Assembly: GCA_964388095.1 (NCBI GenBank)
Contig: CAYLYL010000002.1
Location: 1,323 to 34,506, forward strand
DNA length: 33,184 nt
Source: an uncultured Candidatus Saccharibacteria bacterium
GTDB taxonomy: Bacteria > Patescibacteriota > Minisyncoccia > Phycocordibacterales > CSBR16-193
Reading direction: 5' to 3'
This document shows positions 1,759 to 29,572 of the stretch, one piece after another (within the stretch, counting starts at the first letter, position 1; each line of letters opens with the position of its first letter). The position numbers were made by a program, and so were the translations under genes. The notes below the pieces were generated by a model. That model made no database searches and was not told the DNA's origin. It saw only the letters and a list, made by a program, of their open reading frames with translations.

Positions 1759-2868
1759 TCAACCGATATCATCAACTATCCCGCTAGCTAAGAACTGTGG
1801 TATAGGATCAACACCCACACTCCGGTCCGTCTGCACATCCCCTACCATGTCATAGATAGGTAGAATTATCGCGGCCGCCAAAAAAACCACTATCACCCAA
1901 ACCACTATCAAAAGTATCGGTTCCAGGATCACGCTCAAATTCTTACTCATTATCTCCACCTTTTCCTCATAAGCTTGATGAATATTTTCCAAAGTTTCCG
2001 GCAAACGACCGGAACGCTCGCCGCCGCTTATCAACCCCTGAACAGTGTATGGTATCAAAAAACCGGTCCGAGCATAGTTGGTAAAGACGCGCTGAATAGG
2101 ATCACCTTGCTCCAGTCTGTCAGCCAAATGTCGATAAAATCTTTGATACATTCGGTATGAAGTGGCCTTCTCTAAAGACCGCAACGCTTCTACACTGGAA
2201 ATACCGGCATTCATCAGCGTACTCCACAAATAACCCATCCGAGCCACCTCCACCATCCTTATCAAACTGCGGAATAAAGGCGTGTGCATCATTATCCACT
2301 GCCCGATCACCTTAGTTGGTGAAATAATGAAGATCAGTGCCAACAAGACCGATGCAATTATCAAAAAAGCGGGAACAAACCACCAACCATGACTGCCCAA
2401 AAAATCACCCAAAGCTATAACCCATTGGGTCATCATAGGCAGATCAGCACCTAAACCGGCAAAAGCATTCGACAACTGAGGCAAAATAAACCATGATACG
2501 CCCCCGGCAATGATCAAAGTTATCCCTAAAATAAAAACCGGGTAGATCATTGCCGCCTGGATCTTGGACCGGAAATTGCGCTGCTTTCGTTGTTGTTGCG
2601 AAACAATGCGCAAATTCTCGGGCAATTGACCGGACTCTTCACCCAAACGGATCAATGATACGCTGTAAGTTGGGAACATTTTGGTCTGCTCGATCCCTTC
2701 CCACAACGGCCTTCCTTGGCTAACATATTCCTCTAATTTTTCAACCGCCTCTTTTAAACGCCGGCCGCGCAGATCTTTACCAAGAGTGGATAATGCTTCC
2801 TTTACTCCGGTACCGGCCTCTAAAAGCAAAGTTAGATTTTCTATAAAAGCATCTTTTTCTTTTTCCAT
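1759..2868 (-). CDS. pilC: Type II secretion system F family / type IV pilus platform protein PilC
   Basis: This ~370 aa polytopic protein has a duplicated GspF-like architecture (two soluble segments, each followed by TM helices). It lies 11-20 nt after pilB. The start is the ATG at 2868 or an alternative TTG at 2877. Confidence 0.8.
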   Translation of the reverse strand: MEKEKDAFIENLTLLLEAGTGVKEALSTLGKDLRGRRLKEAVEKLEEYVSQGRPLWEGIEQTKMFPTYSVSLIRLGEESGQLPENLRIVSQQQRKQRNFRSKIQAAMIYPVFILGITLIIAGGVSWFILPQLSNAFAGLGADLPMMTQWVIALGDFLGSHGWWFVPAFLIIASVLLALIFIISPTKVIGQWIMMHTPLFRSLIRMVEVARMGYLWSTLMNAGISSVEALRSLEKATSYRMYQRFYRHLADRLEQGDPIQRVFTNYARTGFLIPYTVQGLISGGERSGRLPETLENIHQAYEEKVEIMSKNLSVILEPILLIVVWVIVVFLAAAIILPIYDMVGDVQTDRSVGVDPIPQFLASGIVDDIG

Positions 2869-2888: not shown

Positions 2889-4574
2889 TCAGGAGACCAA
2901 TACTACCCGATGCACTTCCTCTAAAGTGGTCTCACCGCGTTGAGCTTTGCCTATTCCGTTATCATACATAAATTCAGTATTTTCCGCTCGTGCCAACTCC
3001 AAGATCTCTTCTTTGGACGGCGATTTTATTATCAATCTCCTCATTTCAGGAGTTATCTGGATCATCTCAAAAAGCGCACTTCTACCGCGATATCCGGTGA
3101 ATCCACAGGATTCACATCCCTTGCCCTGATACAAACGTACCGGGTCTTGATTGAAATAATTAACCGCTTCCGGATAAGACCTTCTGATCTCATCAAGTGA
3201 TACATCTATGCTATGACGACAATTACTGCACAAAGTTCTAACTAAGCGCTGAGCTATTATCACCTCCAGAGTAGATGCCAACAGGAACGGTTCCGCCCCC
3301 ATATCGATCAATCGCGGGACACCGGTGGCGGCGTCATTGGCGTGAAAAGTGGAAAGCAACAAATGGCCGGTCAAGGCGGCATTAACCGCTATTTGGTTGG
3401 TCTCCTGATCCCTGATCTCTCCCACTAAAATAATGTCAGGGTCCTGGCGCACAATAGAACGCAAACCCTTAGCGAAAGTGATATCTTTGCTTTCATTTAC
3501 CTGGATCTGATTGATGCCTTTGATGTGATATTCTACCGGATCCTCAATAGTGGTAATGTTAACCAAACTGGTATTCAACAACTTCATTACCGCATAGAGA
3601 GTAGTGGTTTTTCCCGAACCGGTCGGACCGGCCACCAGTATCATTCCGAAGGGCTTGCGTGCCGCTTGATTCAGGATCTTTTCTTGGTTTTCGGTCAAAC
3701 CCAACCCGGCAAAAGTAAGCTCCTTAATATATTGAGCCAAAAGACGCATACATACTTTTTCCCCGCCCAAAGTGGGAGCGATGGAAAGCCGAACATCTAT
3801 CTCCTCCGACCCGCAACTATACCGAAAAGCTCCGTCCTGCATCTTTTGATGGGTATCGATCCTGATATGAGCGTTCACCTTAATACGGTTGACTACCCGA
3901 GGGTAAAGAGTGTCTGGAATTTCGGCCACTTCATTCATTACTCCATCTTTCCGAAAACGCACTCGCACTCCCGCACCCGTCTCTTCAGGCGGTTCAAAAT
4001 GAACATCGGAAACCTTTTGCTCATAGGCCTCTTCCAGGATCTCCTCCAGGATCTCGGAGGCCTCGGGATCCTCCTTGTTCAATATCTCCTTCAGTCGCTC
4101 CGGTAACGGCGCCCGGTAACTACGAAGAGCGTCGGTTACTTCCTCCGGCAGCGAATAACAAACTGTTATCTCTTGGTCAAAATATTTGCTTAGCGCTTTT
4201 TTGATCTTCTTGCGGTTCTTTCTAACAGGAATATCAGTTGTTACCAGCACTTTATCGGACTCCTCCCGACAAAATATAACCCGGTATTTTTGAGCCACCT
4301 CTTGAGGGATCTTGGCGGTATAATCAGACGAAGGAGGGTTGTAGTTTAGATTGATATAGGGAAGTTTAAAAAACTCACCCACCGCCTGACCAAAAATATC
4401 ACGATTTATTAATCCCTGTTCGCTTAAATAAGAAAACAGCGGAACTCCTTGTTCTTCCGATTCTTCTTTGGCCTGCTCAAACTCTTCTTCGGTTAAATAA
4501 CCTTGAGTTACCAGTATCTCTTTGATATCCCTAATGTCCTCCGGTGAAAGGTTCTCTTGAAAAATAGAAGCCAT
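2889..4574 (-). CDS. pilB: Type IV pilus assembly / T2SS ATPase (PilB/GspE family)
   Basis: The 561 aa product has a Walker A motif (GPTGSGKTT), a GspE N-terminal domain-like leader, and a C-terminal tetracysteine motif (CSNCRHS...CESCGFTGYRGR). Confidence 0.92.
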   Translation of the reverse strand: MASIFQENLSPEDIRDIKEILVTQGYLTEEEFEQAKEESEEQGVPLFSYLSEQGLINRDIFGQAVGEFFKLPYINLNYNPPSSDYTAKIPQEVAQKYRVIFCREESDKVLVTTDIPVRKNRKKIKKALSKYFDQEITVCYSLPEEVTDALRSYRAPLPERLKEILNKEDPEASEILEEILEEAYEQKVSDVHFEPPEETGAGVRVRFRKDGVMNEVAEIPDTLYPRVVNRIKVNAHIRIDTHQKMQDGAFRYSCGSEEIDVRLSIAPTLGGEKVCMRLLAQYIKELTFAGLGLTENQEKILNQAARKPFGMILVAGPTGSGKTTTLYAVMKLLNTSLVNITTIEDPVEYHIKGINQIQVNESKDITFAKGLRSIVRQDPDIILVGEIRDQETNQIAVNAALTGHLLLSTFHANDAATGVPRLIDMGAEPFLLASTLEVIIAQRLVRTLCSNCRHSIDVSLDEIRRSYPEAVNYFNQDPVRLYQGKGCESCGFTGYRGRSALFEMIQITPEMRRLIIKSPSKEEILELARAENTEFMYDNGIGKAQRGETTLEEVHRVVLVS

Positions 4575-4578
4575 AGAC

Positions 4579-4962
4579 TCAAGTAACTGAATTGATGTAT
4601 TCGATCACTTCATTAATGGAAATATCCGATTTTACCAGGAATTTTTCAGCCCCCAATTCCCGAGCTTTGCGGCGATCTTCTTCCTGGCTGAGATTGGAAA
4701 GAACAAATATCCTAGCATTGAGGTCCATTTTGTTTAGCTCTTCCAAGAAAGCAAAACCGTCCATATAAGGCATCATTACATCCAAAAGTATCACATCAAA
4801 CGGCGATTGCTTTACTTTTTCCAACCCTTCGTGACCGTCGTGAGCCATTTCAACTTCATAACCACATTTACGAAGCTTGGTGGTCATAGCACGAGCCATA
4901 GGTTTCTCGTCTTCAACCACCAGTATCCTGGTAGTGCCGGAATTAAATTCCTCGTTATCCAT
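4579..4962 (-). CDS. Stand-alone response regulator receiver (CheY-like) protein
   Basis: The 127 aa product reads ILVVEDE...DVILLDVMMPYMDGF...K, the receiver acidic pocket with phospho-Asp context. It ends 4 nt upstream of pilB. Confidence 0.85.
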   Translation of the reverse strand: MDNEEFNSGTTRILVVEDEKPMARAMTTKLRKCGYEVEMAHDGHEGLEKVKQSPFDVILLDVMMPYMDGFAFLEELNKMDLNARIFVLSNLSQEEDRRKARELGAEKFLVKSDISINEVIEYINSVT

Positions 4963-5056
4963 AGTCAGTTAATTATATCATAACCGACAGTTGAAACAAT
5001 ACACAAAATAAACTGAAATACCCGATACAGCAGATCCTCCGGCTTCTCCCCTCCCT

Positions 5057-5108
5057 CAGAGGCCTGGCCTCTGGGTTTCTAGTTTTTTACAGAGGCCTGG
5101 CCTCTGGG
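5057..5108. repeat. Two direct copies of a 19-nt palindromic unit CAGAGGCCTGGCCTCTGGG (REP-like hairpins or tandem terminators)
   Basis: The copies lie at 5057-5075 and 5090-5108. Each folds as CAGAGGCC / GGCCTCTG. The first is followed by a T-run on the plus strand (GTTTCTAGTTTTTT). Confidence 0.7.
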
Positions 5109-5133
5109 ATTTACGATACTTTGAGGAAATAGA

Positions 5134-5415
5134 TCATTTGACGATCTCGGTTTCAAACTCCGGGAAGTAATGATTAACATCTTCCACGTCAAAACTGCGC
5201 ATTATGGAATCACGCGACTCTCTGGCAAGCAGAAACTGAAATACCCGATACAGCAGATCCTCCGGCATCTCCTCCTCGCCGGCCAGCCGACCATAAGTAT
5301 CGCGGGTTAAAGAAACCGAGTGTAATGTACTCTGATTGCCGTCCGTTACCTCCACCCTTAACACCCAACCGTCACGATCTTCGGCGGAAATATCTATTTT
5401 TACCTGTTCCTTCAT
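5134..5415 (-). CDS. Hypothetical small cytoplasmic protein (93 aa)
   Basis: A clean ATG ORF with non-repetitive composition. I recognise no motif in it. Confidence 0.55.
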   Translation of the reverse strand: MKEQVKIDISAEDRDGWVLRVEVTDGNQSTLHSVSLTRDTYGRLAGEEEMPEDLLYRVFQFLLARESRDSIMRSFDVEDVNHYFPEFETEIVK

Positions 5416-5451
5416 AGTAAAATAAATTTACTGATAATAAATGAAGTTCTG

Positions 5452-5703
5452 TTAAAGCAGTTTGCTTGCTATAACTTCACGATATTTAGCGTACAAGAAT
5501 GATATCATTAAAGCCAAAATTCCCAAACCAATACTGGAAATAATGCGATATATTTCACTTAATCCCCACAGGTCGAAAAAAACTTTCCCGGCAACGATCA
5601 ACAGCAACACCACTCCCCCGATACGCACAGCTTTATGCTTCAGCCAAAATCCGCCCAATACCAACCCCAAAGCGTAGAAACCCCACCAAATATTGATGGA
5701 CAA
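5452..5703 (-). CDS. Small 3-TM membrane protein resembling the C-terminal end of DUF2339-type membrane proteins; possibly a gene remnant
   Basis: It has a TTG start and an in-frame stop 9 codons upstream. The segment KVFFDLWGLSEIYRIISSIGLGILALMISFLY resembles a DUF2339 C-terminus from memory. Confidence 0.35.
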   Translation of the reverse strand: MSINIWWGFYALGLVLGGFWLKHKAVRIGGVVLLLIVAGKVFFDLWGLSEIYRIISSIGLGILALMISFLYAKYREVIASKLL

Positions 5704-26632: not shown

Positions 26633-26953
26633 GCAAGCAGTACTATTCCCTTAGTTAAATAGTTCTTACTCGCCCCAATGAACAAAAAAGACAACAAAGT
26701 TGCTCTGTTGCCAATAGTAGTTCTCAAAACCTCATTACTGTTTGTTCCTTTTCAGTAAGAACAAAATGATCAGCCGGATCCGGTTGAGTACTTCAAGATA
26801 TATAATATAAATGTTATTTTCTCCATACTGATTCGCAAATGTTAAATTTGTAGCAACCTGTAAATTTTCATTGCCGCTGTAAAAAATTTTAAGAAAACCG
26901 TTAAAAGAAGTATTTATAGTAATCTGAACTCTTTTAAGTTAAAATATAAGGTG

Positions 26954-28471
26954 ATGAGCAAGGAAAGCACCGAGATACCTATTAATCGAACAAAAGCCGC
27001 TCCGCGACGCCGGGTGCGGAAGCTGACTTTTTGGGAAAAAAATGTAGCGGCAGTGACCTTTATGGGAGTTGTGATAGGAATTCTTGTCGGTGCGTATGGA
27101 CTGTATCTGGTTTGGGAAGTGGAACCGAATTATCAGGTCATAATTTCCCCGCCTGATCAGGAGCAACAAGAGTATGTTCTAACTTATGGCTCTTATCCGG
27201 AAATGACCCAGCCGGACTTTTTCGACAATACCCTGAAACAGTTCAAAGAGCAGAGGAGCTCTTTTTTGGAAGCTGATCTGGTAAATAAAGAAATACGAGT
27301 CTTTAAAGACGGAAAGGTGGAGTTTGAAGCCCCGATCGCGGCCAAAGGACGAGCCGGTTCCTGGTGGGAAACACCGGCCGGACTTTATGAGGTTCAAACC
27401 AAGAGCCCCAATCATTTTTCCCGATTGGCCAGTGTACATATGCCCTGGAGCATTCAATTCCACGGCAACTTCTTCATTCACGGCTGGCCTTACCACCCCG
27501 ACGGTAGACCTCTTTCCTCACAATTCACCGGCGGATGTATCCGACTGAACAACGATGACGCTCAACAATTATATCAGCTAGCTAAACCGGGAATGCCGGT
27601 CCTGGTTCATAATCGTCCCCCGGAAGACGGCCTCACTTACTCCACCGAACCACAGGTAAGCGCCGACAGTTTCCTGGTGGCCGATCTAAAAAATGATTTT
27701 GTATTCTTTGAAGAGGGTCAAAACCAAACCTTTCCTATGTCTTCTTTTGTCCATTCCTTGACCGCTTTAGTGGGAGTGGAACATATCAATCTGGGCGACA
27801 GTTATGTTCACATTAATGACGATATGTTAACCGAAACTCCCCGCGAAAGATTACAAGCCGGAGAACGACTGTCATTCTACCAACTGCTTTTCCCTTTACT
27901 GATGGAATCATCCAACGAAGCCGCGCGAGCTGCCGTCTCCACCCGAGGAGAAAAATTATTCGTAAACTGGCTAAACAGCAAAGCTCGTGCTTTGGGAATG
28001 GAGCAAACCGAGATAAACGGAATAACCTCCGACAGCGATAACCTGACCTCTTTATACGATCTGTATCGCTTCACCCACCATGTTTACCACAACCGTCGTT
28101 TTGTTTTGGAGATCAGCGCCTTACAAGACGGTGCAGCCGACTGGAAAAGTGTTTACGGCAGTCCGGCCTGGGATGATCTGGAAAACCTCCACCCTCTGTC
28201 CCGAACCGACAATTTCCGGGGCGGCGCGCGCAAGACCGCCGACCCGAGATCTGAAGAACCCGACTCTTACACCTTGTCGGCGGTTTATCAGGTAAAGATC
28301 AACGGACATGACAGACCGCTGATCTTTCTGTTGCGCGGATCCGAAGACCCCGAGCAAGATATTGAAAAAATGAAAAACTCCATCATAAGTACCTACTCAT
28401 TAAAGGAAAAAACCGAGGACGATATCCCGAAAGAAAAAGAAGGGTGGCAAGACGAGTATCAAGAACAGTAA
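26954..28471 (+). CDS. L,D-transpeptidase (YkuD) fused to a degenerate D-Ala-D-Ala carboxypeptidase (S11)-like domain
   Basis: It has an N-terminal TM helix. The YkuD motif is HG...SQFTGGCIRL, with the Cys codon at 27536-27538. The C-terminal half carries S11-like blocks: PMSSFVHSLTALV, LLMESSNEAARA and RKTA. Confidence 0.75.
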   Translation: MSKESTEIPINRTKAAPRRRVRKLTFWEKNVAAVTFMGVVIGILVGAYGLYLVWEVEPNYQVIISPPDQEQQEYVLTYGSYPEMTQPDFFDNTLKQFKEQRSSFLEADLVNKEIRVFKDGKVEFEAPIAAKGRAGSWWETPAGLYEVQTKSPNHFSRLASVHMPWSIQFHGNFFIHGWPYHPDGRPLSSQFTGGCIRLNNDDAQQLYQLAKPGMPVLVHNRPPEDGLTYSTEPQVSADSFLVADLKNDFVFFEEGQNQTFPMSSFVHSLTALVGVEHINLGDSYVHINDDMLTETPRERLQAGERLSFYQLLFPLLMESSNEAARAAVSTRGEKLFVNWLNSKARALGMEQTEINGITSDSDNLTSLYDLYRFTHHVYHNRRFVLEISALQDGAADWKSVYGSPAWDDLENLHPLSRTDNFRGGARKTADPRSEEPDSYTLSAVYQVKINGHDRPLIFLLRGSEDPEQDIEKMKNSIISTYSLKEKTEDDIPKEKEGWQDEYQEQ

Positions 28472-28556
28472 AATTAAAATGGTTTGCTAAATAGCTATTT
28501 ATAGTTTAATCTTTAAATATCGTACTATTCCATCATACAAAGAAAGAGAGGACGAT

Positions 28557-28649
28557 ATGAATAGAATCGACTATTTTTTTGGGTTTGGACTTCTCCCTGA
28601 AGAAGCCCAGGAAAAAGACCCAGAACCGGAACAAAAAAAGAGGAACTAG
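28557..28649 (+). CDS. Candidate 30-aa small protein (MNRIDYFFGFGLLPEEAQEKDPEPEQKKRN)
   Basis: The purine-rich tract AGAGAGGA ends 5 nt upstream of the ATG. Two hairpins follow, including a terminator at 28692-28722. Confidence 0.3.
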   Translation: MNRIDYFFGFGLLPEEAQEKDPEPEQKKRN

Positions 28650-28691
28650 AAAGCGAGGAAGAATACCTCGCGTCTCTTTCTGGGAAATAAT

Positions 28692-28722
28692 AACCGGCGC
28701 CCCGCGCCGGTTCCGCTTTTTT
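28692..28722 (+). terminator. Intrinsic terminator
   Basis: AACCGGCGC-ccc-GCGCCGGTT is followed by CCGCTTTTTT. Confidence 0.7.
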
Positions 28723-28761
28723 AAATACTTACCCCATACCGGGGTGAATATGAACCGTTCG

Positions 28762-29036
28762 ATCACTCAAAACCAAAACAAAACCCCCTCTTCGGGGGTT
28801 TTGTTTTTGAGGGATCTTGTCTGATCTTAAGTGACCTTAAGGTCAGGCGTTTAGCTCGAACCTACTCGGAGTGCTGCTTTCGGTGGCAAGGGCTTTCCCC
28901 GTGGGTACTAACCTTCGTCCCCGGCGCGCTTCGGGGATATATTGCCCCTACTAACAGCCCGCTTTCCCTTCCTTTTTTTTGGTTGGTACTAACTCTCCTT
29001 TCGTGTTGGCTTTCGCGCTTCTGCTGATCCCTTCTG
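28762..29036 (-). ncRNA. Unclassified structured sRNA candidate, copy 1 (~270 nt including terminator)
   Basis: The promoter is TTGACA (29070-29065), a 16-nt spacer, then TGATAAATT with -10 at 29048-29043. The terminal helix pairs AGGGATC (29026-29032) with GATCCCT (28810-28816). A 51-nt core at 28901-28951 is 46/51 identical to copy 2. There is a palindromic hairpin at 28832-28845, and a terminator hairpin at 28775-28807 followed by a U-rich tail. Confidence 0.65.
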
Positions 29037-29170
29037 ACTATAAATTTATCATATTCTGATTGGCTGTCAAAGTGTAGTTATCCACAACCCAAACCCACCT
29101 TTGAGCAAAGTACTTTTCTTTCAATTAACTTTACAAGCTCACTGGTTACCAACCGACAATATCAGCTCCT

Positions 29171-29428
29171 TTTTTAATTTTAATAACAAACACCCCCGTT
29201 AAACGGGGGTGTTTGTTATGTTTTTGAAGAGGTGTTTTTTGATCTTTTAGATCTAAAATATTATTTAGTCGCCGTTTTCTTGGTCAACGGCTTTCCTTGT
29301 GGGTACTAACCTTGATCCCCGGCGCGCTTCAGGGATATATTGACCATACTCGCGGCATTATCGGTTTTCCCCTCTTCGGGTACTCATCCTTTTAGGTCCA
29401 TTTTTTAGGGCCGTTTCCACCTCTTCTA
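29171..29428 (-). ncRNA. Unclassified structured sRNA candidate, copy 2 (~255 nt including terminator)
   Basis: The promoter is TTGAAT (29463-29458), a 17-nt spacer, then TGTTAACAT with -10 at 29440-29435. The 9-bp terminal helix pairs GAAGAGGTG with CACCTCTTC (29418-29426 with 29226-29234). The core lies at 29299-29349, a palindromic hairpin at 29245-29258, and a 16-bp terminator hairpin at 29183-29219. Confidence 0.65.
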
Positions 29429-29572
29429 TTAAGAATGTTAACACGCAAAATTTAACAATTCAATCACGGTTTTCCACAACTTGTTTCTTGGTATTTGATG
29501 AAAATAACAACAGTAAAAAAACAACCTTGGGCACATTAAGATACCCGAATGCCGGATCGATCTGTACTATTA

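Follow-up and report, generated by a model that had tools for sequence, protein, structure and literature searches.

The intergenic gap at positions 28,472 to 29,572 of the window, which is the whole stretch of 33,184 nt analyzed here, contains a highly structured noncoding RNA (ncRNA) gene, not described before, in two diverged copies. The initial annotation had proposed that the minus strand encodes two structured RNA genes that are paralogues, and this proposal was upheld by conservation in relatives and by compensatory base changes. The RNA family itself is well supported, and its function is what we infer. The reading that we favor, and hold to be reasonably probable, is that of an uncatalogued, stand-alone family of structured ncRNAs of Candidatus Paceibacterota (CPR), which acts in trans, scaffolds protein and/or dimerizes, and is tuned by DnaA.

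A large part of bacterial diversity belongs to the CPR, or Patescibacteria, whose genomes are tiny and of which nearly all members are uncultivated. A lineage-specific structured RNA for this group was not found in the literature searched. Because the RNA was retained, and here duplicated, despite a strongly reduced genome, it is likely to have an important role. The modules that make up the family (S-turn hairpins, UNCG caps and a palindromic loop) are known ones and its mechanism is proposed rather than demonstrated, so that "new" applies to the RNA class and not to a mechanism.

Two RNA genes and their homologues

The features of the two genes are collected in Table 1. Upon folding, both copies were more stable than shuffled sequence (z = -4.7 and -7.3). 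The terminal helices described for the two copies were recovered: AGGGATC of copy 1 (29032-29026) pairs with GATCCCT (28816-28810) with a probability of 0.95, and GAAGAGGTG of copy 2 (29426-29418) pairs with CACCTCTTC (29234-29226) with a probability of 1.00. The 51-nt core is identical at 46 of 51 positions (28944-28894 versus 29342-29292), as reported, and its sole stem difference is C-G versus U.G. Both copies also carry the 3' hairpin, the long terminator (28807-28775 and 29219-29183) and three AGUA elements. A separate terminator ends each unit and the neighboring genes are convergent or divergent, so that each is a stand-alone gene. The terminator-like hairpin past rmuC would insulate copy 2 from read-through.

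Table 1. Positions in the window of the two RNA genes, their parts and their predicted signals.
Feature	Positions	Strand	Description	Evidence
RNA copy 1	28808..29035	minus	228 nt; helices P1, P3, P4 (extended), P5, S-turn module, P6, P7, P8, P9	folding, model R1, alignment
RNA copy 2	29225..29428	minus	204 nt, terminal helix to terminal helix; helices P1, P2, P3, P4, P5, S-turn module, P6, P7, P8, P9	folding, model R1, alignment
Copy 1 12-mer GTTGTGGATAAC	29077..29088	minus	contains a perfect match to the DnaA box, TTATCCACA, at 29078-29086 on the plus strand, 7 nt upstream of the -35	consensus match
Copy 1 predicted promoter	29043..29070	minus	TTGACA, 16-nt spacer, TG-a-TAAATT	promoter scan 10/12, TG present
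Copy 1 P4, S-turn hairpin	28960..28994	minus	GUU-AGUA-CC ... GG-GAA-AGC; CC/GG extension inserted, A8 loop	
Copy 1 core domain	28873..28958	minus	P5 GCUG/CAGC, then third S-turn (UUAGUAGG opposite ACCGAAAG), then P6 GGCAA/UUGCC as the closing helix of the three-way junction P6/P7/P8	
Copy 1 P7 hairpin	28916..28939	minus	apical loop AAGCGCGC at 28931-28924	
Copy 1 P8, S-turn hairpin	28891..28913	minus	GGUU-AGUA-CC-CACG-GG-GAA-AGCC; near-invariant in the family	
Copy 1 predicted intrinsic terminator	28775..28807	minus	14-bp stem, then T-rich tail	
Copy 2 12-mer GTTGTGGAAAAC	29469..29480	minus	contains a DnaA-box variant, TTTTCCACA, at 29470-29478 on the plus strand, 6 nt upstream of the -35	consensus match
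Copy 2 promoter-like site	29435..29463	minus	-35 TTGAAT 29463-29458, 17-nt spacer, TG 29443-29442, -10 TAACAT 29440-29435	
Copy 2 P4, S-turn hairpin	29363..29389	minus	GGAUG-AGUA-CCC-GAAGA-GGG-GAA-AACC	
Copy 2 core domain	29271..29356	minus	P5 GCCG/CGGC, third S-turn (CGAGUAUG opposite CAAGAAAA), P6 GUCAA/UUGAC, three-way junction	
Copy 2 P7 hairpin	29314..29337	minus	loop AAGCGCGC at 29329-29322	
Copy 2 P8, S-turn hairpin	29289..29311	minus	GGUUAGUACCCACAAGGAAAGCC	
Copy 2 predicted intrinsic terminator	29183..29219	minus	17-bp stem, then T-rich tail	
Terminator-like hairpin	29529..29546	minus	directly past the rmuC stop codon	

Exact-pattern and synteny searches recovered seven further homologues from Paceibacterota MAGs and metagenomes (L005, L014, L017, L019, L020, L022 and L023), the placement in Paceibacterota being taken from the names on the RmuC and ScpA homologues. 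A genome scan with the P8 hairpin pattern returned one true homologue (L005) and one DGR (L006), and a metagenome scan with the loop-plus-hairpin pattern returned three true homologues (L008, L012 and L014) together with six chance matches in coding regions. The distribution of the family is underestimated in these scans, because exact patterns miss most variants. The window, L008, L012 and L014 come from sediments of soda lakes (Kulunda or others). The members are approximately 205-265 nt long. They fall into two clades: in the seven loci of one (the scpA clade), the RNA is a single gene that is divergent from scpA-scpB and always lies next to scpA, and the other is that of the window copies.

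The covariance model R1 was built solely from the seven homologues, with the window copies left out. R1 matched copy 1 with 65.2 bits (E = 3.8e-17, 28999-28870) and copy 2 with 39.7 bits (E = 6.3e-10, 29344-29278), and its matches in the window were confined to the minus strand. The search of relatives suggested by the initial annotation yielded homologues whose model recovers both window copies. The peripheries of the window copies were not alignable to the scpA clade by R1.

Consensus fold and comparison with known RNA families

Comparative analysis of nine distinct sequences from the two clades supported approximately 10 helices. In the alignment made with MAFFT only (A3), 86.9% of the cells were paired and 21 pairs had changed on both sides; none of 500 shuffles was as good, and sliding the partners lowered the paired share to 32-56%. 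In the structural alignment of the nine RNAs, which was fitted by hand to the structure, 86.8% of the cells were paired and 47 of the 75 pairs had changed on both sides, and again 0 of 500 shuffles was as good. These double changes speak for compensatory change in relatives, the absence of which would have counted against the initial proposal. The minus strand was likewise borne out as the functional strand: G.U cells outnumbered A.C cells by 56 to 14, and in the strain variant L008 both substitutions are C-to-U, each giving a G.U pair on the minus strand.

The fold is a stack of long-range helices (P1, P10, P3, P5 and P6) with the side hairpins P2, P4 and P9, and the stack ends in the three-way junction P6/P7/P8. 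The terminal helix P1 links the 5' and 3' ends and is directly followed by a strong predicted intrinsic terminator. Single-sequence pairing probabilities recovered P1, P2, P10, P3, P9 and mostly P5-P7. Helix P8 was never predicted by thermodynamic folding, as is expected because it is an S-turn, a motif that such folding does not model, and is drawn from comparative evidence only. P4 and the third S-turn were likewise missing from the thermodynamic predictions.

We compared these RNAs with the known families, and the earlier statement that no known family matches was confirmed: at the gathering score, Rfam 15 gave zero matches in the whole window. The same run covered L004, L005 and L006; no match was found in L005, and L006, as the positive control, matched RT-18 with 75.9 bits. 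When matches with E up to 10 were accepted in the gap region, only terminator-like matches appeared, with neither a 6S nor an RT-18 model among them, and the tRNA/tmRNA scan revealed nothing. The best sub-threshold match (L014, searched with E up to 1) was to RT-18, at 23.4 bits (E = 0.074) against a cut-off of 41.3.

An abundant RNA-polymerase-binding regulator that sequesters RNA polymerase or a sigma factor, as a functional analogue of 6S RNA or of mycobacterial Ms1, would agree with a stand-alone RNA of approximately 200-260 nt with a strong predicted promoter and terminator, paired ends and a long quasi-continuous stack, and no 6S family match was seen in the window or in the fetched loci, so that this role is not visibly filled there. 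However, only approximately 33 kb of the genome was seen and a normal 6S gene may sit elsewhere. The consensus is multi-branched with a three-way junction and has no large central bubble between long closing and terminal stems, the feature by which the long 6S rod mimics an open promoter; additionally, the 6S models were unmatched even at E up to 10. Membership in the 6S class was rejected for these reasons, and the functional analogy appears improbable to us.

The family resembles the large orphan bacterial ncRNAs raiA, OLE, ROOL and GOLLD, which are also stand-alone, multi-helix RNAs with covariation and with their own promoter and terminator, and whose function, as here, is not deducible from gene context. 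In contrast to these, the present RNAs are smaller (205-265 nt), have no sequence or model similarity to them, were found here in Paceibacterota sequences only and have a DnaA box in the promoter.

Conserved hairpins and the palindromic loop

Three elements are kept as sequence and not merely as pairing: the AGUA/GAA hairpins P4 and P8, which are nearly identical to each other and have UACG as their usual cap, and the P7 loop AAGCGCGC. The bulged-G motif, also called loop E, sarcin-ricin or S-turn motif, occurs in the sarcin-ricin loop of 23S rRNA and in loop E of eukaryotic 5S rRNA. In three dimensions, it is marked by a G-U-A triple, a sheared A.G pair and an S-shaped turn of the backbone. 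The suggestion that the AGUA elements are such modules is supported by their contexts, which are typical of S-turn (loop E) motifs: 5'-AGUA-3' stands opposite 5'-GAA-3' between Watson-Crick pairs in P4 and P8 of the nine RNAs, and in the P5-P6 module of the window copies too, that is, twice per member and three times in the window copies. Some differences from the sarcin-ricin loop were present. The caps are UACG or CACG rather than GAGA, and the bulged G varies (AUUA and ACUA in L019, AAUA in L020), which is unusual for canonical bulged-G motifs; the S-turn is here a motif recognized from sequence. No convincing further copy of the hairpin, such as an autoregulatory site, was found outside the RNA genes in the 175 kb of DNA examined.

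The same hairpin core is found in RF03021, the RT-18 RNA, a DGR/RT-associated motif (Weinberg et al. 2017, PMC5737381). RT-18 and P4 and P8 of all members share a UAGUA ... GAAA S-turn core in a Watson-Crick hairpin, but the hairpin alone is common to them; the family RNA is three times longer, has nine further helices and lies near neither an RT gene nor a template or variable repeat. RT-18 is characterized by a site directly ahead of an RT gene. P8 of L005 is identical at 23 of 23 positions to the TR-RT spacer hairpin of the phage DGR L003, and the hairpin of L004 is one base off. A similar hairpin forms the RT-18 core in L006, and R1 matched these hairpins with 24 and 20.5 bits. As P1 also forms a terminal inverted repeat superficially like the a1/a2 repeats of retrons, the family could be a retroelement RNA or a derivative of one, serving as template or recognition RNA for an RT encoded elsewhere. 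We regard this as quite unlikely. No RT was found among the 30 Pfam-scanned window ORFs or among the called genes beside any homologue, a template or variable repeat is missing, and the likeness to RT-18 (23.4 bits, with 41.3 required) is limited to the hairpin. The DGR RT, as seen in L004, resembles RTs of gut-Firmicutes phages and not those of CPR, and we therefore take the identical hairpin for a generic module that both have in common rather than for a sign of common descent. Convergence can yield an identical short hairpin, given the fixed AGUA/GAA core and the common UACG cap, and the hairpin search itself demanded 18 of 23 matching bases. A retron msr-msd RNA was also rejected, since the terminal helix is present but no locus has an adjacent RT. 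Because DGRs use the same hairpin beside RT genes, the partner of the RNA could nevertheless be an RT-like or Avd-like RNA-binding protein, or the RNA could be a domesticated retroelement RNA.

The P7 loop with its palindrome GCGCGC is invariant in the nine RNAs, whereas the P7 stem covaries. The window copies have a loop of 8 nt, and in the other clade its length is 9-15 nt; the palindrome is in the apical loop and is preceded by two purines (AA). Palindromic loops of this kind drive dimerization in the HIV-1 DIS (PMC7357161) and, according to recent cryo-EM, in OLE RNA (PMC12286853). In the HIV-1 DIS, the palindrome is a GC-rich hexamer flanked by conserved purines (PMC7357161), and OLE loop L9.3 and loops in ROOL and GOLLD provide further precedents (PMC12286853). 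Like the DIS and L9.3, the family has a self-complementary, GC-rich hexamer in an apical loop with purines before it. In contrast to these RNAs and to ROOL and GOLLD, the family loop shows no palindrome switching, and the dimer is a prediction. As GCGCGC never varies, intermolecular loop pairing would give no covariation signal, and the invariant loop could equally be a contact for a protein or a ligand instead of a dimer contact. With this invariant palindromic loop, RNA quaternary structure could be put to a direct test in an RNA of small size.

We propose a folded RNA particle that acts in trans. Its twin S-turn hairpins would either be recognized by a protein partner or serve as modules for tertiary docking, and the exposed palindrome may pair with the same loop of a second molecule, so that a homodimer forms; in this organism, the two paralogues could also combine into a heterodimer. 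A trans-acting RNA or RNP component, as initially suggested, is still the best reading.

The same elements were weighed for an RNA that works without protein, namely a ribozyme, a ligand-binding RNA or a structural particle in which the S-turns and A-rich loops serve intramolecular packing. Many covarying helices surround a small invariant core (J6/7 UA, J7/8 AA and the P7 loop), and the grooves of the S-turns could receive the A-rich loops (CAAAAA in L2 and, in the scpA clade, the 5' half of L7); there is precedent for large bacterial RNAs whose assembly needs no protein (PMC12286853). However, we recognized no catalytic or ligand-binding signature, and two nearly identical hairpins resemble repeated recognition sites more than unique tertiary contacts. 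In L019 the bulged G is gone from both hairpins, a joint loss suggestive of co-evolution with a partner that they share. A protein-free RNA is therefore an unlikely alternative, yet one to be taken seriously.

Promoters, DnaA boxes and gene neighborhood

The two promoters described in the initial annotation were found again. For copy 1, TTGACA-16-TAAATT with TG before the -10 was a scan match at 29070-29043 (10/12); for copy 2, TTGAAT-17-TG-T-TAACAT (29463-29435) was read in the sequence and scores 8/12, which is under the scan threshold. By analogy with the nine other promoters, the copy 2 site is probably a promoter as well. A sigma70-type promoter is predicted at each RNA gene, and its -10 is usually TG-extended.

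The conserved upstream 12-mers GTTGTGGATAAC (29088-29077) and GTTGTGGAAAAC (29480-29469) lie at the reported positions, and their match to the consensus identifies the element as a putative DnaA box, which had not been recognized. Of the 10 promoters, 9 carry the perfect 9-mer TTATCCACA, which reads TGTGGATAA on the RNA strand, at a distance of 5-7 nt upstream of the -35, and copy 2 has one mismatch. There is one perfect box per locus in nine loci, 37-43 nt upstream of the RNA 5' end, and the copy 1 box is the sole one in the whole window. In 73 kb, 9 perfect boxes were observed versus 0.56 expected.

An oriC has several clustered DnaA boxes and an AT-rich unwinding element and is usually near dnaA or dnaN. 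We rejected this reading, as each promoter has one box and no cluster of DnaA boxes was found within 600 nt. A DnaA or DnaN domain was absent from the Pfam-scanned window ORFs and the called genes of the homologue loci. In E. coli and B. subtilis, DnaA also regulates transcription; as far as we know, its known regulons consist of protein-coding genes, and we know of no structured ncRNA that is a conserved DnaA-box target. The ten promoters resemble DnaA-box-regulated promoters in having a single consensus 9-mer in a fixed place beside the -35, and differ in that the putative target is a structured ncRNA rather than a protein-coding gene. The box would be, to our knowledge, the first conserved link between the replication initiator DnaA and a structured ncRNA. 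DnaA probably tunes transcription of the RNA, and the amount of RNA would thereby be tied to replication status.

A more specific form of the proposal is a DnaA-controlled RNA particle of the CPR lineage that self-associates via GCGCGC and offers a multivalent S-turn platform to a protein of DNA metabolism or chromosome handling. Each monomer would then present two to three identical S-turn hairpins, and RNA abundance would report replication status. This form is speculative, and the chances are well against it.

The neighborhood of rmuC, which had been taken as a clue to function, turned out to be incidental. In L026 and L027, whose RmuC proteins are close relatives (78% and 69% identity), the order MPG-yqeY-rmuC is maintained; 64 nt follow rmuC, and the model had no match in either. 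Upstream of scpA, the RNA was absent in L024 and L025, which are beyond approximately 57% ScpA identity. The homologues are flanked by scpA, scpB, Peptidase_S11, an aminoacyl-tRNA synthetase and Na_Ca_ex genes, and the synteny comparison, which was also suggested initially as a route to a conserved partner, revealed no gene that co-occurs with the RNA in both clades.

These contexts also bear on a cis-acting element, that is, a leader or riboswitch of a downstream gene or a regulator of either scpA, which is divergent, or rmuC, which is adjacent. With a terminator after its structured domain, the unit recalls a riboswitch whose expression platform is a terminator, and in the other clade the RNA is always beside scpA. 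However, no same-strand gene lies downstream in the window or in the seven other loci; the next genes are on the opposite strand and convergent. The terminator is outside the closed P1 helix, and no conserved alternative anti-terminator pairing is present. The RNA and scpA do not overlap, the window copies are far from any scpA, and the rmuC relatives lack the RNA. The downstream context and the position of the terminator led us to reject a riboswitch, T-box or leader class, and cis action in general is highly improbable.

Conservation of a small protein-coding gene, or of a repeated or mobile DNA element, is the last explanation to be weighed. The position of the RNA differs by lineage (scpA-linked versus rmuC-linked), and the sequence after copy 2 differs between assemblies. 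In contrast, neither RNA unit in the window contains an ORF of at least 40 aa, and compensatory substitutions are seen throughout the helices; the copy number is one in each of the seven scpA-clade loci and two in the window, and neither terminal repeats nor transposase genes are present. We give this explanation hardly any weight.

The junction between copy 2 and copy 1 was seen in this contig only. Two other assemblies, L001 and L012, match the window up to 29186 and then continue with unrelated sequence; the tandem arrangement may thus be strain-specific or an assembly join. Some of the downstream genes of L012 have the same lengths as ORFs of the window (302 aa and 194 aa) but are unrelated and were not accepted as their equivalents. 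The gap had been called the only large one; among the gaps that separate ORFs of 90 aa or more it is the largest, but further ones measure 260-450 nt. Furthermore, the 1.1 kb had been described as having no credible ORF, which does not hold: a 30-codon ORF with a Shine-Dalgarno sequence was found at 28557-28649 on the plus strand, followed by a terminator at 28692-28712.

Organization of the two RNA units

A real finding of this analysis, in our view, is an RNA family missing from Rfam whose members are conserved, structured and stand-alone. Zero matches at the gathering score were obtained with Rfam 15 over the whole window, permissive settings gave nothing but terminator-like matches, a tRNA/tmRNA scan found none, and a search of the literature turned up no RNA of this kind, in agreement with the initial annotation, which had recognized no family. 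The two members in the window, copy 1 and copy 2, share the same design on the minus strand, as listed below. All five parts originally ascribed to both units (upstream 12-mer, promoter, terminal helix, core and 3' hairpin with terminator) were borne out by the sequence, the promoter and terminator scans, folding and core identity. In particular, the predicted promoter of copy 1 showed 10/12 matches with the TG present, and that of copy 2 showed 8/12 matches, which is under the promoter-scan threshold. Folding against shuffled controls gave z = -4.7 and -7.3 for the two RNAs, with the 5' and 3' ends closed in both, and 46/51 residues of the 51-nt core were identical between the copies. The terminator scan also revealed a hairpin and T-run after rmuC (29546-29529).

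Features of the RNA-bearing gap (window positions) and of the retroelement loci on phage contigs L003 and L004
Feature	Position	Strand	Remark
Gap	29573 to 28471	minus (as read)	rmuC stop codon to end of YkuD/Peptidase_S11 gene; two units, same design
Copy 2 12-mer	29480-29469	minus
Copy 2 -35	29463-29458	minus	TTGAAT
Copy 2 -10	29443-29435	minus	TG-T-TAACAT
Copy 2 RNA	29428-29225	minus
Copy 2 terminator	29219-29183	minus	promoter/terminator scan
Copy 1 12-mer	29088-29077	minus
Copy 1 -35	29070-29065	minus	TTGACA
Copy 1 -10	29051-29043	minus	TG-a-TAAATT
Copy 1 RNA	29035-28808	minus
Copy 1 terminator	28807-28775	minus	promoter/terminator scan
L004 DGR	3726-5535
L004 template repeat	5122-5279
L004 variable repeat	5378-5535
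L004 RT gene	3726-4982
L003 hairpin	2508-2530		between template repeat and RT start codon

The gap had been described as lacking a credible ORF and as the only large non-coding one. We found that a 30-codon ORF, equipped with a Shine-Dalgarno sequence and a separate terminator (28692-28712), occupies 28557-28649 (+), and that other ORFs of 90 aa or more are also separated by gaps of 260-450 nt. This small ORF (MNRIDYFFGFGLLPEEAQEKDPEPEQKKRN, preceded by AGAGAGGA) is convergent to copy 1; hairpins (28653-28671) come after it, and then the terminator, which is G+C-rich and bidirectional; its DNA was also present in the strain contig L008. The neighboring 506-aa protein (26951-28471, +) combines L,D-transpeptidase (YkuD) and D-Ala-D-Ala carboxypeptidase (Peptidase_S11) domains in one chain. 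Farther away, in window 1-26575, the minus strand encodes every long ORF and the GC skew is strongly negative (about -0.1 to -0.3), and from ~27000 on gene strands are mixed and the skew nears zero. This block contains type IV pilus/T2SS E and F genes, TyrRS, a second class Ib tRNA synthetase, a Cu-type P-ATPase and DUF411.

The tandem arrangement of the copies stood in part. Two independent assemblies, the NCBI MAG contig PUOK01000096 (L001, 2400-2518) and a JGI soda-lake metagenome contig (L012, 767-7495), agreed with the window at 99% over rmuC and copy 2 as far as 29186, exactly where the terminator stem of copy 2 ends; past this point, they share one sequence that is unrelated to the window. 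L008 begins at 29012, inside copy 1, and extends toward the Peptidase_S11 side. Since L001 and L012 carry copy 2 and L008 carries copy 1, both RNA genes are present in the population, but their direct adjacency is documented by the window contig only and could reflect either strain-level structural variation or a join made in assembly.

Homologues and their genomic neighborhood

Scanning for exact matches to the hairpin common to both copies (GGTTAGTACC-N5-GGAAAGCC) revealed one full-length homologue, L005, in a Candidatus Paceibacterota MAG, and a second pattern gave three metagenome matches, namely strain variants of copy 1 (L008) and copy 2 (L012) and a distinct homologue (L014). The RNA gene was divergent from scpA in both L005 and L014, and further homologues were sought by walking down ScpA homologues in falling identity. 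This walk yielded L017 (= L018), L019, L020, L022 and L023, in which the RNA lies upstream of scpA-scpB-Peptidase_S11-MraY; additionally, L021 was nearly identical to L005, and L016 contained a 5' fragment of the RNA only. No RNA was found upstream of scpA in L024 and L025 (ScpA identities of 54% and 51%). As Peptidase_S11 follows scpB in this scpA clade, a Peptidase_S11 gene is found no more than a few kb from the RNA in either setting.

A covariance model (R1) was trained on seven scpA-clade RNAs only, with the window copies left out. R1 matched copy 1 with 65.2 bits (E = 3.8e-17, model positions 71-195) and copy 2 with 39.7 bits (E = 6.3e-10, model positions 113-185), both on the minus strand, and gave no other match at E < 1 on the rest of the window. 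The periphery of the window copies was too diverged for R1 to align; judged from these matches, the RNA core is homologous across the scpA clade and the window copies. The conservation in relatives on which the structured-RNA proposal depended was thus found. Going by the names that RmuC homologues carry, the window organism belongs to Paceibacterota too. The rmuC context, which had been taken as a clue, did not hold up: the closest RmuC relatives on long contigs (L026, 78% identity; L027, 69%) keep the MPG-yqeY-rmuC order, but the RNA is absent, with 64 nt after rmuC, and the scpA-clade homologues adjoin scpA instead. The rmuC neighborhood is therefore incidental.

In several scpA-clade loci, a small conserved ORF in convergent orientation comes immediately after the RNA (L019:1812-2030 (+), L021:1318-1557 (+), L005:771-1100 (-) and L017:1798-1896 (+), truncated in the last). 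Its pattern is ..F I E/K K V/I N x G x x N F x x I/V x V/I E G V V D L.., and it is unrelated to the 30-codon ORF of the window.

Consensus fold and S-turn hairpins

Comparative reading gave ten helices: the terminal helix P1; a stack of long-range helices (P10, P3, P5 and P6); the side hairpins P2, P4 and P9; and a three-way junction closed by P6 and bearing P7 and P8. In a sequence-only MAFFT alignment of the seven scpA-clade RNAs, 86.9% of pairs under the consensus structure were standard and 21 pairs changed on both sides (covariation score 0.239). None of 500 column shuffles reached these values, and sliding the 3' partners by 1-3 columns left 32-56% paired with 3-7 pairs changed on both sides. 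A structural alignment of nine distinct RNAs, made by hand with each segment checked against the sequences, leans towards the structure; of its 75 pairs, 47 changed on both sides, and 86.8% of cells were paired (0/500 shuffles as good; slid controls 34-52% paired). Compensatory change above the controls in both alignments upholds the proposal of a structured RNA. As evident from the paired strands (5'/3'), P5 varied as GCUG/CAGC, GCCG/CGGC, ACAU/AUGU, GUAC/GUGC and GGU/ACC; P3 as UUCGGAAA/UUUCCGAA, UCGAAAG/CUUUCGA, CUUGAU/AUCAAG, GGAG/CUCC and CUAAAA/UUUUAG; and P10 as UUCUUUGAAUC/GAUUCAAAGAA versus GGUUGUUUAAAU/AUUUAAGUAACC. The minus strand, previously proposed as functional, was favored by 56 G.U cells versus 14 A.C cells, and the two substitutions between L008 and copy 1, one in P7 and one in P8, were both C-to-U and both created G.U. 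Overall, these comparisons make the RNA family and its fold well supported in a small sample of nine sequences from two clades.

Single-sequence partition-function folding recovered P1, P2, P10, P3 and P9 for the majority of the RNAs and P5-P7 for many of them. P8 was never recovered, as expected, because nearest-neighbor energies score an S-turn as if its internal loop were open. P8 (GG-UU-AGUA-CC-UACG-GG-GAA-AGCC) and P4 (G-UU-AGUA-CC-UACG-GG-GAA-AGC) have nearly the same sequence, and their AGUA/GAA between Watson-Crick pairs is what we take to be the signature of a bulged-G (loop E, sarcin-ricin) S-turn. A third AGUA/GAA module lies between P5 and P6 in the window copies (UUAGUAGG with ACCGAAAG; CGAGUAUG with CAAGAAAA). 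This arrangement is consistent with the loop-E/S-turn modules initially suggested for the AGUA elements. The bulged G was replaced in P8 of L020 (AAUA) and in both hairpins of L019 (AUUA, ACUA; 2270-2285 and 2199-2214), the remaining L019 RNA being intact; the joint change could fit a shared partner with co-evolution, or a relaxed motif.

The hairpin pattern also matched phage contigs L003 and L004, between the template repeat and the reverse transcriptase (RT) gene of a diversity-generating retroelement (DGR), and a Mediterraneibacter DGR (L006, 6816-6890), where it forms the core of a clear member of Rfam RT-18 (75.9 bits); L004 reached no Rfam family at the gathering score. A minor alternative is that the family is retroelement-derived or RT-linked. 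The L003 hairpin is identical to P8 of L005 at 23/23 bases, although 18 of the 23 were already fixed by the search pattern, and beyond the hairpin nothing is common to the family and the DGR RNAs. RT-18 scored 23.4 bits on L014 versus a cut-off of 41.3, no RT gene was found near any family member, and the RT on the phage contig is similar to those encoded by phages of gut Firmicutes. We thus treat the hairpin common to both as a generic S-turn module.

Promoter element, P7 loop and proposed mechanism

The conserved 12-mer noted earlier upstream of the -35 was confirmed in position, but its nature had been missed: GTTGTGGATAAC, when reverse-complemented, contains TTATCCACA, the DnaA-box consensus. 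The box TGTGGATAA was present in the ten promoters examined, except for copy 2, which has TGTGGAAAA instead. Its end is 5-7 nt before the -35, and in nine loci the distance from the box to the downstream RNA 5' end is 37-43 nt; in each of these loci the perfect box is unique (9 in 73 kb versus 0.56 expected); the scpA-clade -10 is TG-TATAAT. The window copies show that the box is part of the promoter of the RNA gene rather than of that of the divergent scpA. An origin of replication was ruled out by the single box per promoter and by the absence of a cluster; no DnaA-box cluster was found in the window either. The natural reading of these sequences would be that DnaA controls RNA transcription.

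The P7 loop contains AAGCGCGC in every family member, while the P7 stem covaries, and the residues at junctions J6/7 (UA) and J7/8 (AA) do not vary either. The GCGCGC of the P7 loop is a self-complementary palindrome, for which the chance in an invariant hexamer is 1 in 64, and it has no conserved complementary partner elsewhere in the RNA. Purine-flanked palindromic apical loops drive dimerization in the HIV-1 DIS (PMC7357161), and such loops make intermolecular kissing contacts in the OLE, ROOL and GOLLD RNAs (PMC12286853). Given the palindrome, the lack of an intramolecular partner and these similar apical loops, we propose dimerization through GCGCGC, which here is a prediction only. Drawing on such features and precedents, the most likely mechanism would be a folded RNA that acts in trans and is transcribed under DnaA control, its twin S-turn hairpins being offered to a protein partner and its GCGCGC loop mediating self-association.

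We also observed a second AAGCGCG (AGAAGCGCGAAAGCC) in the 5' region of copy 1 (29025-29005, -), which is absent from copy 2 and the scpA clade and might form an intramolecular pairing with the P7 loop.
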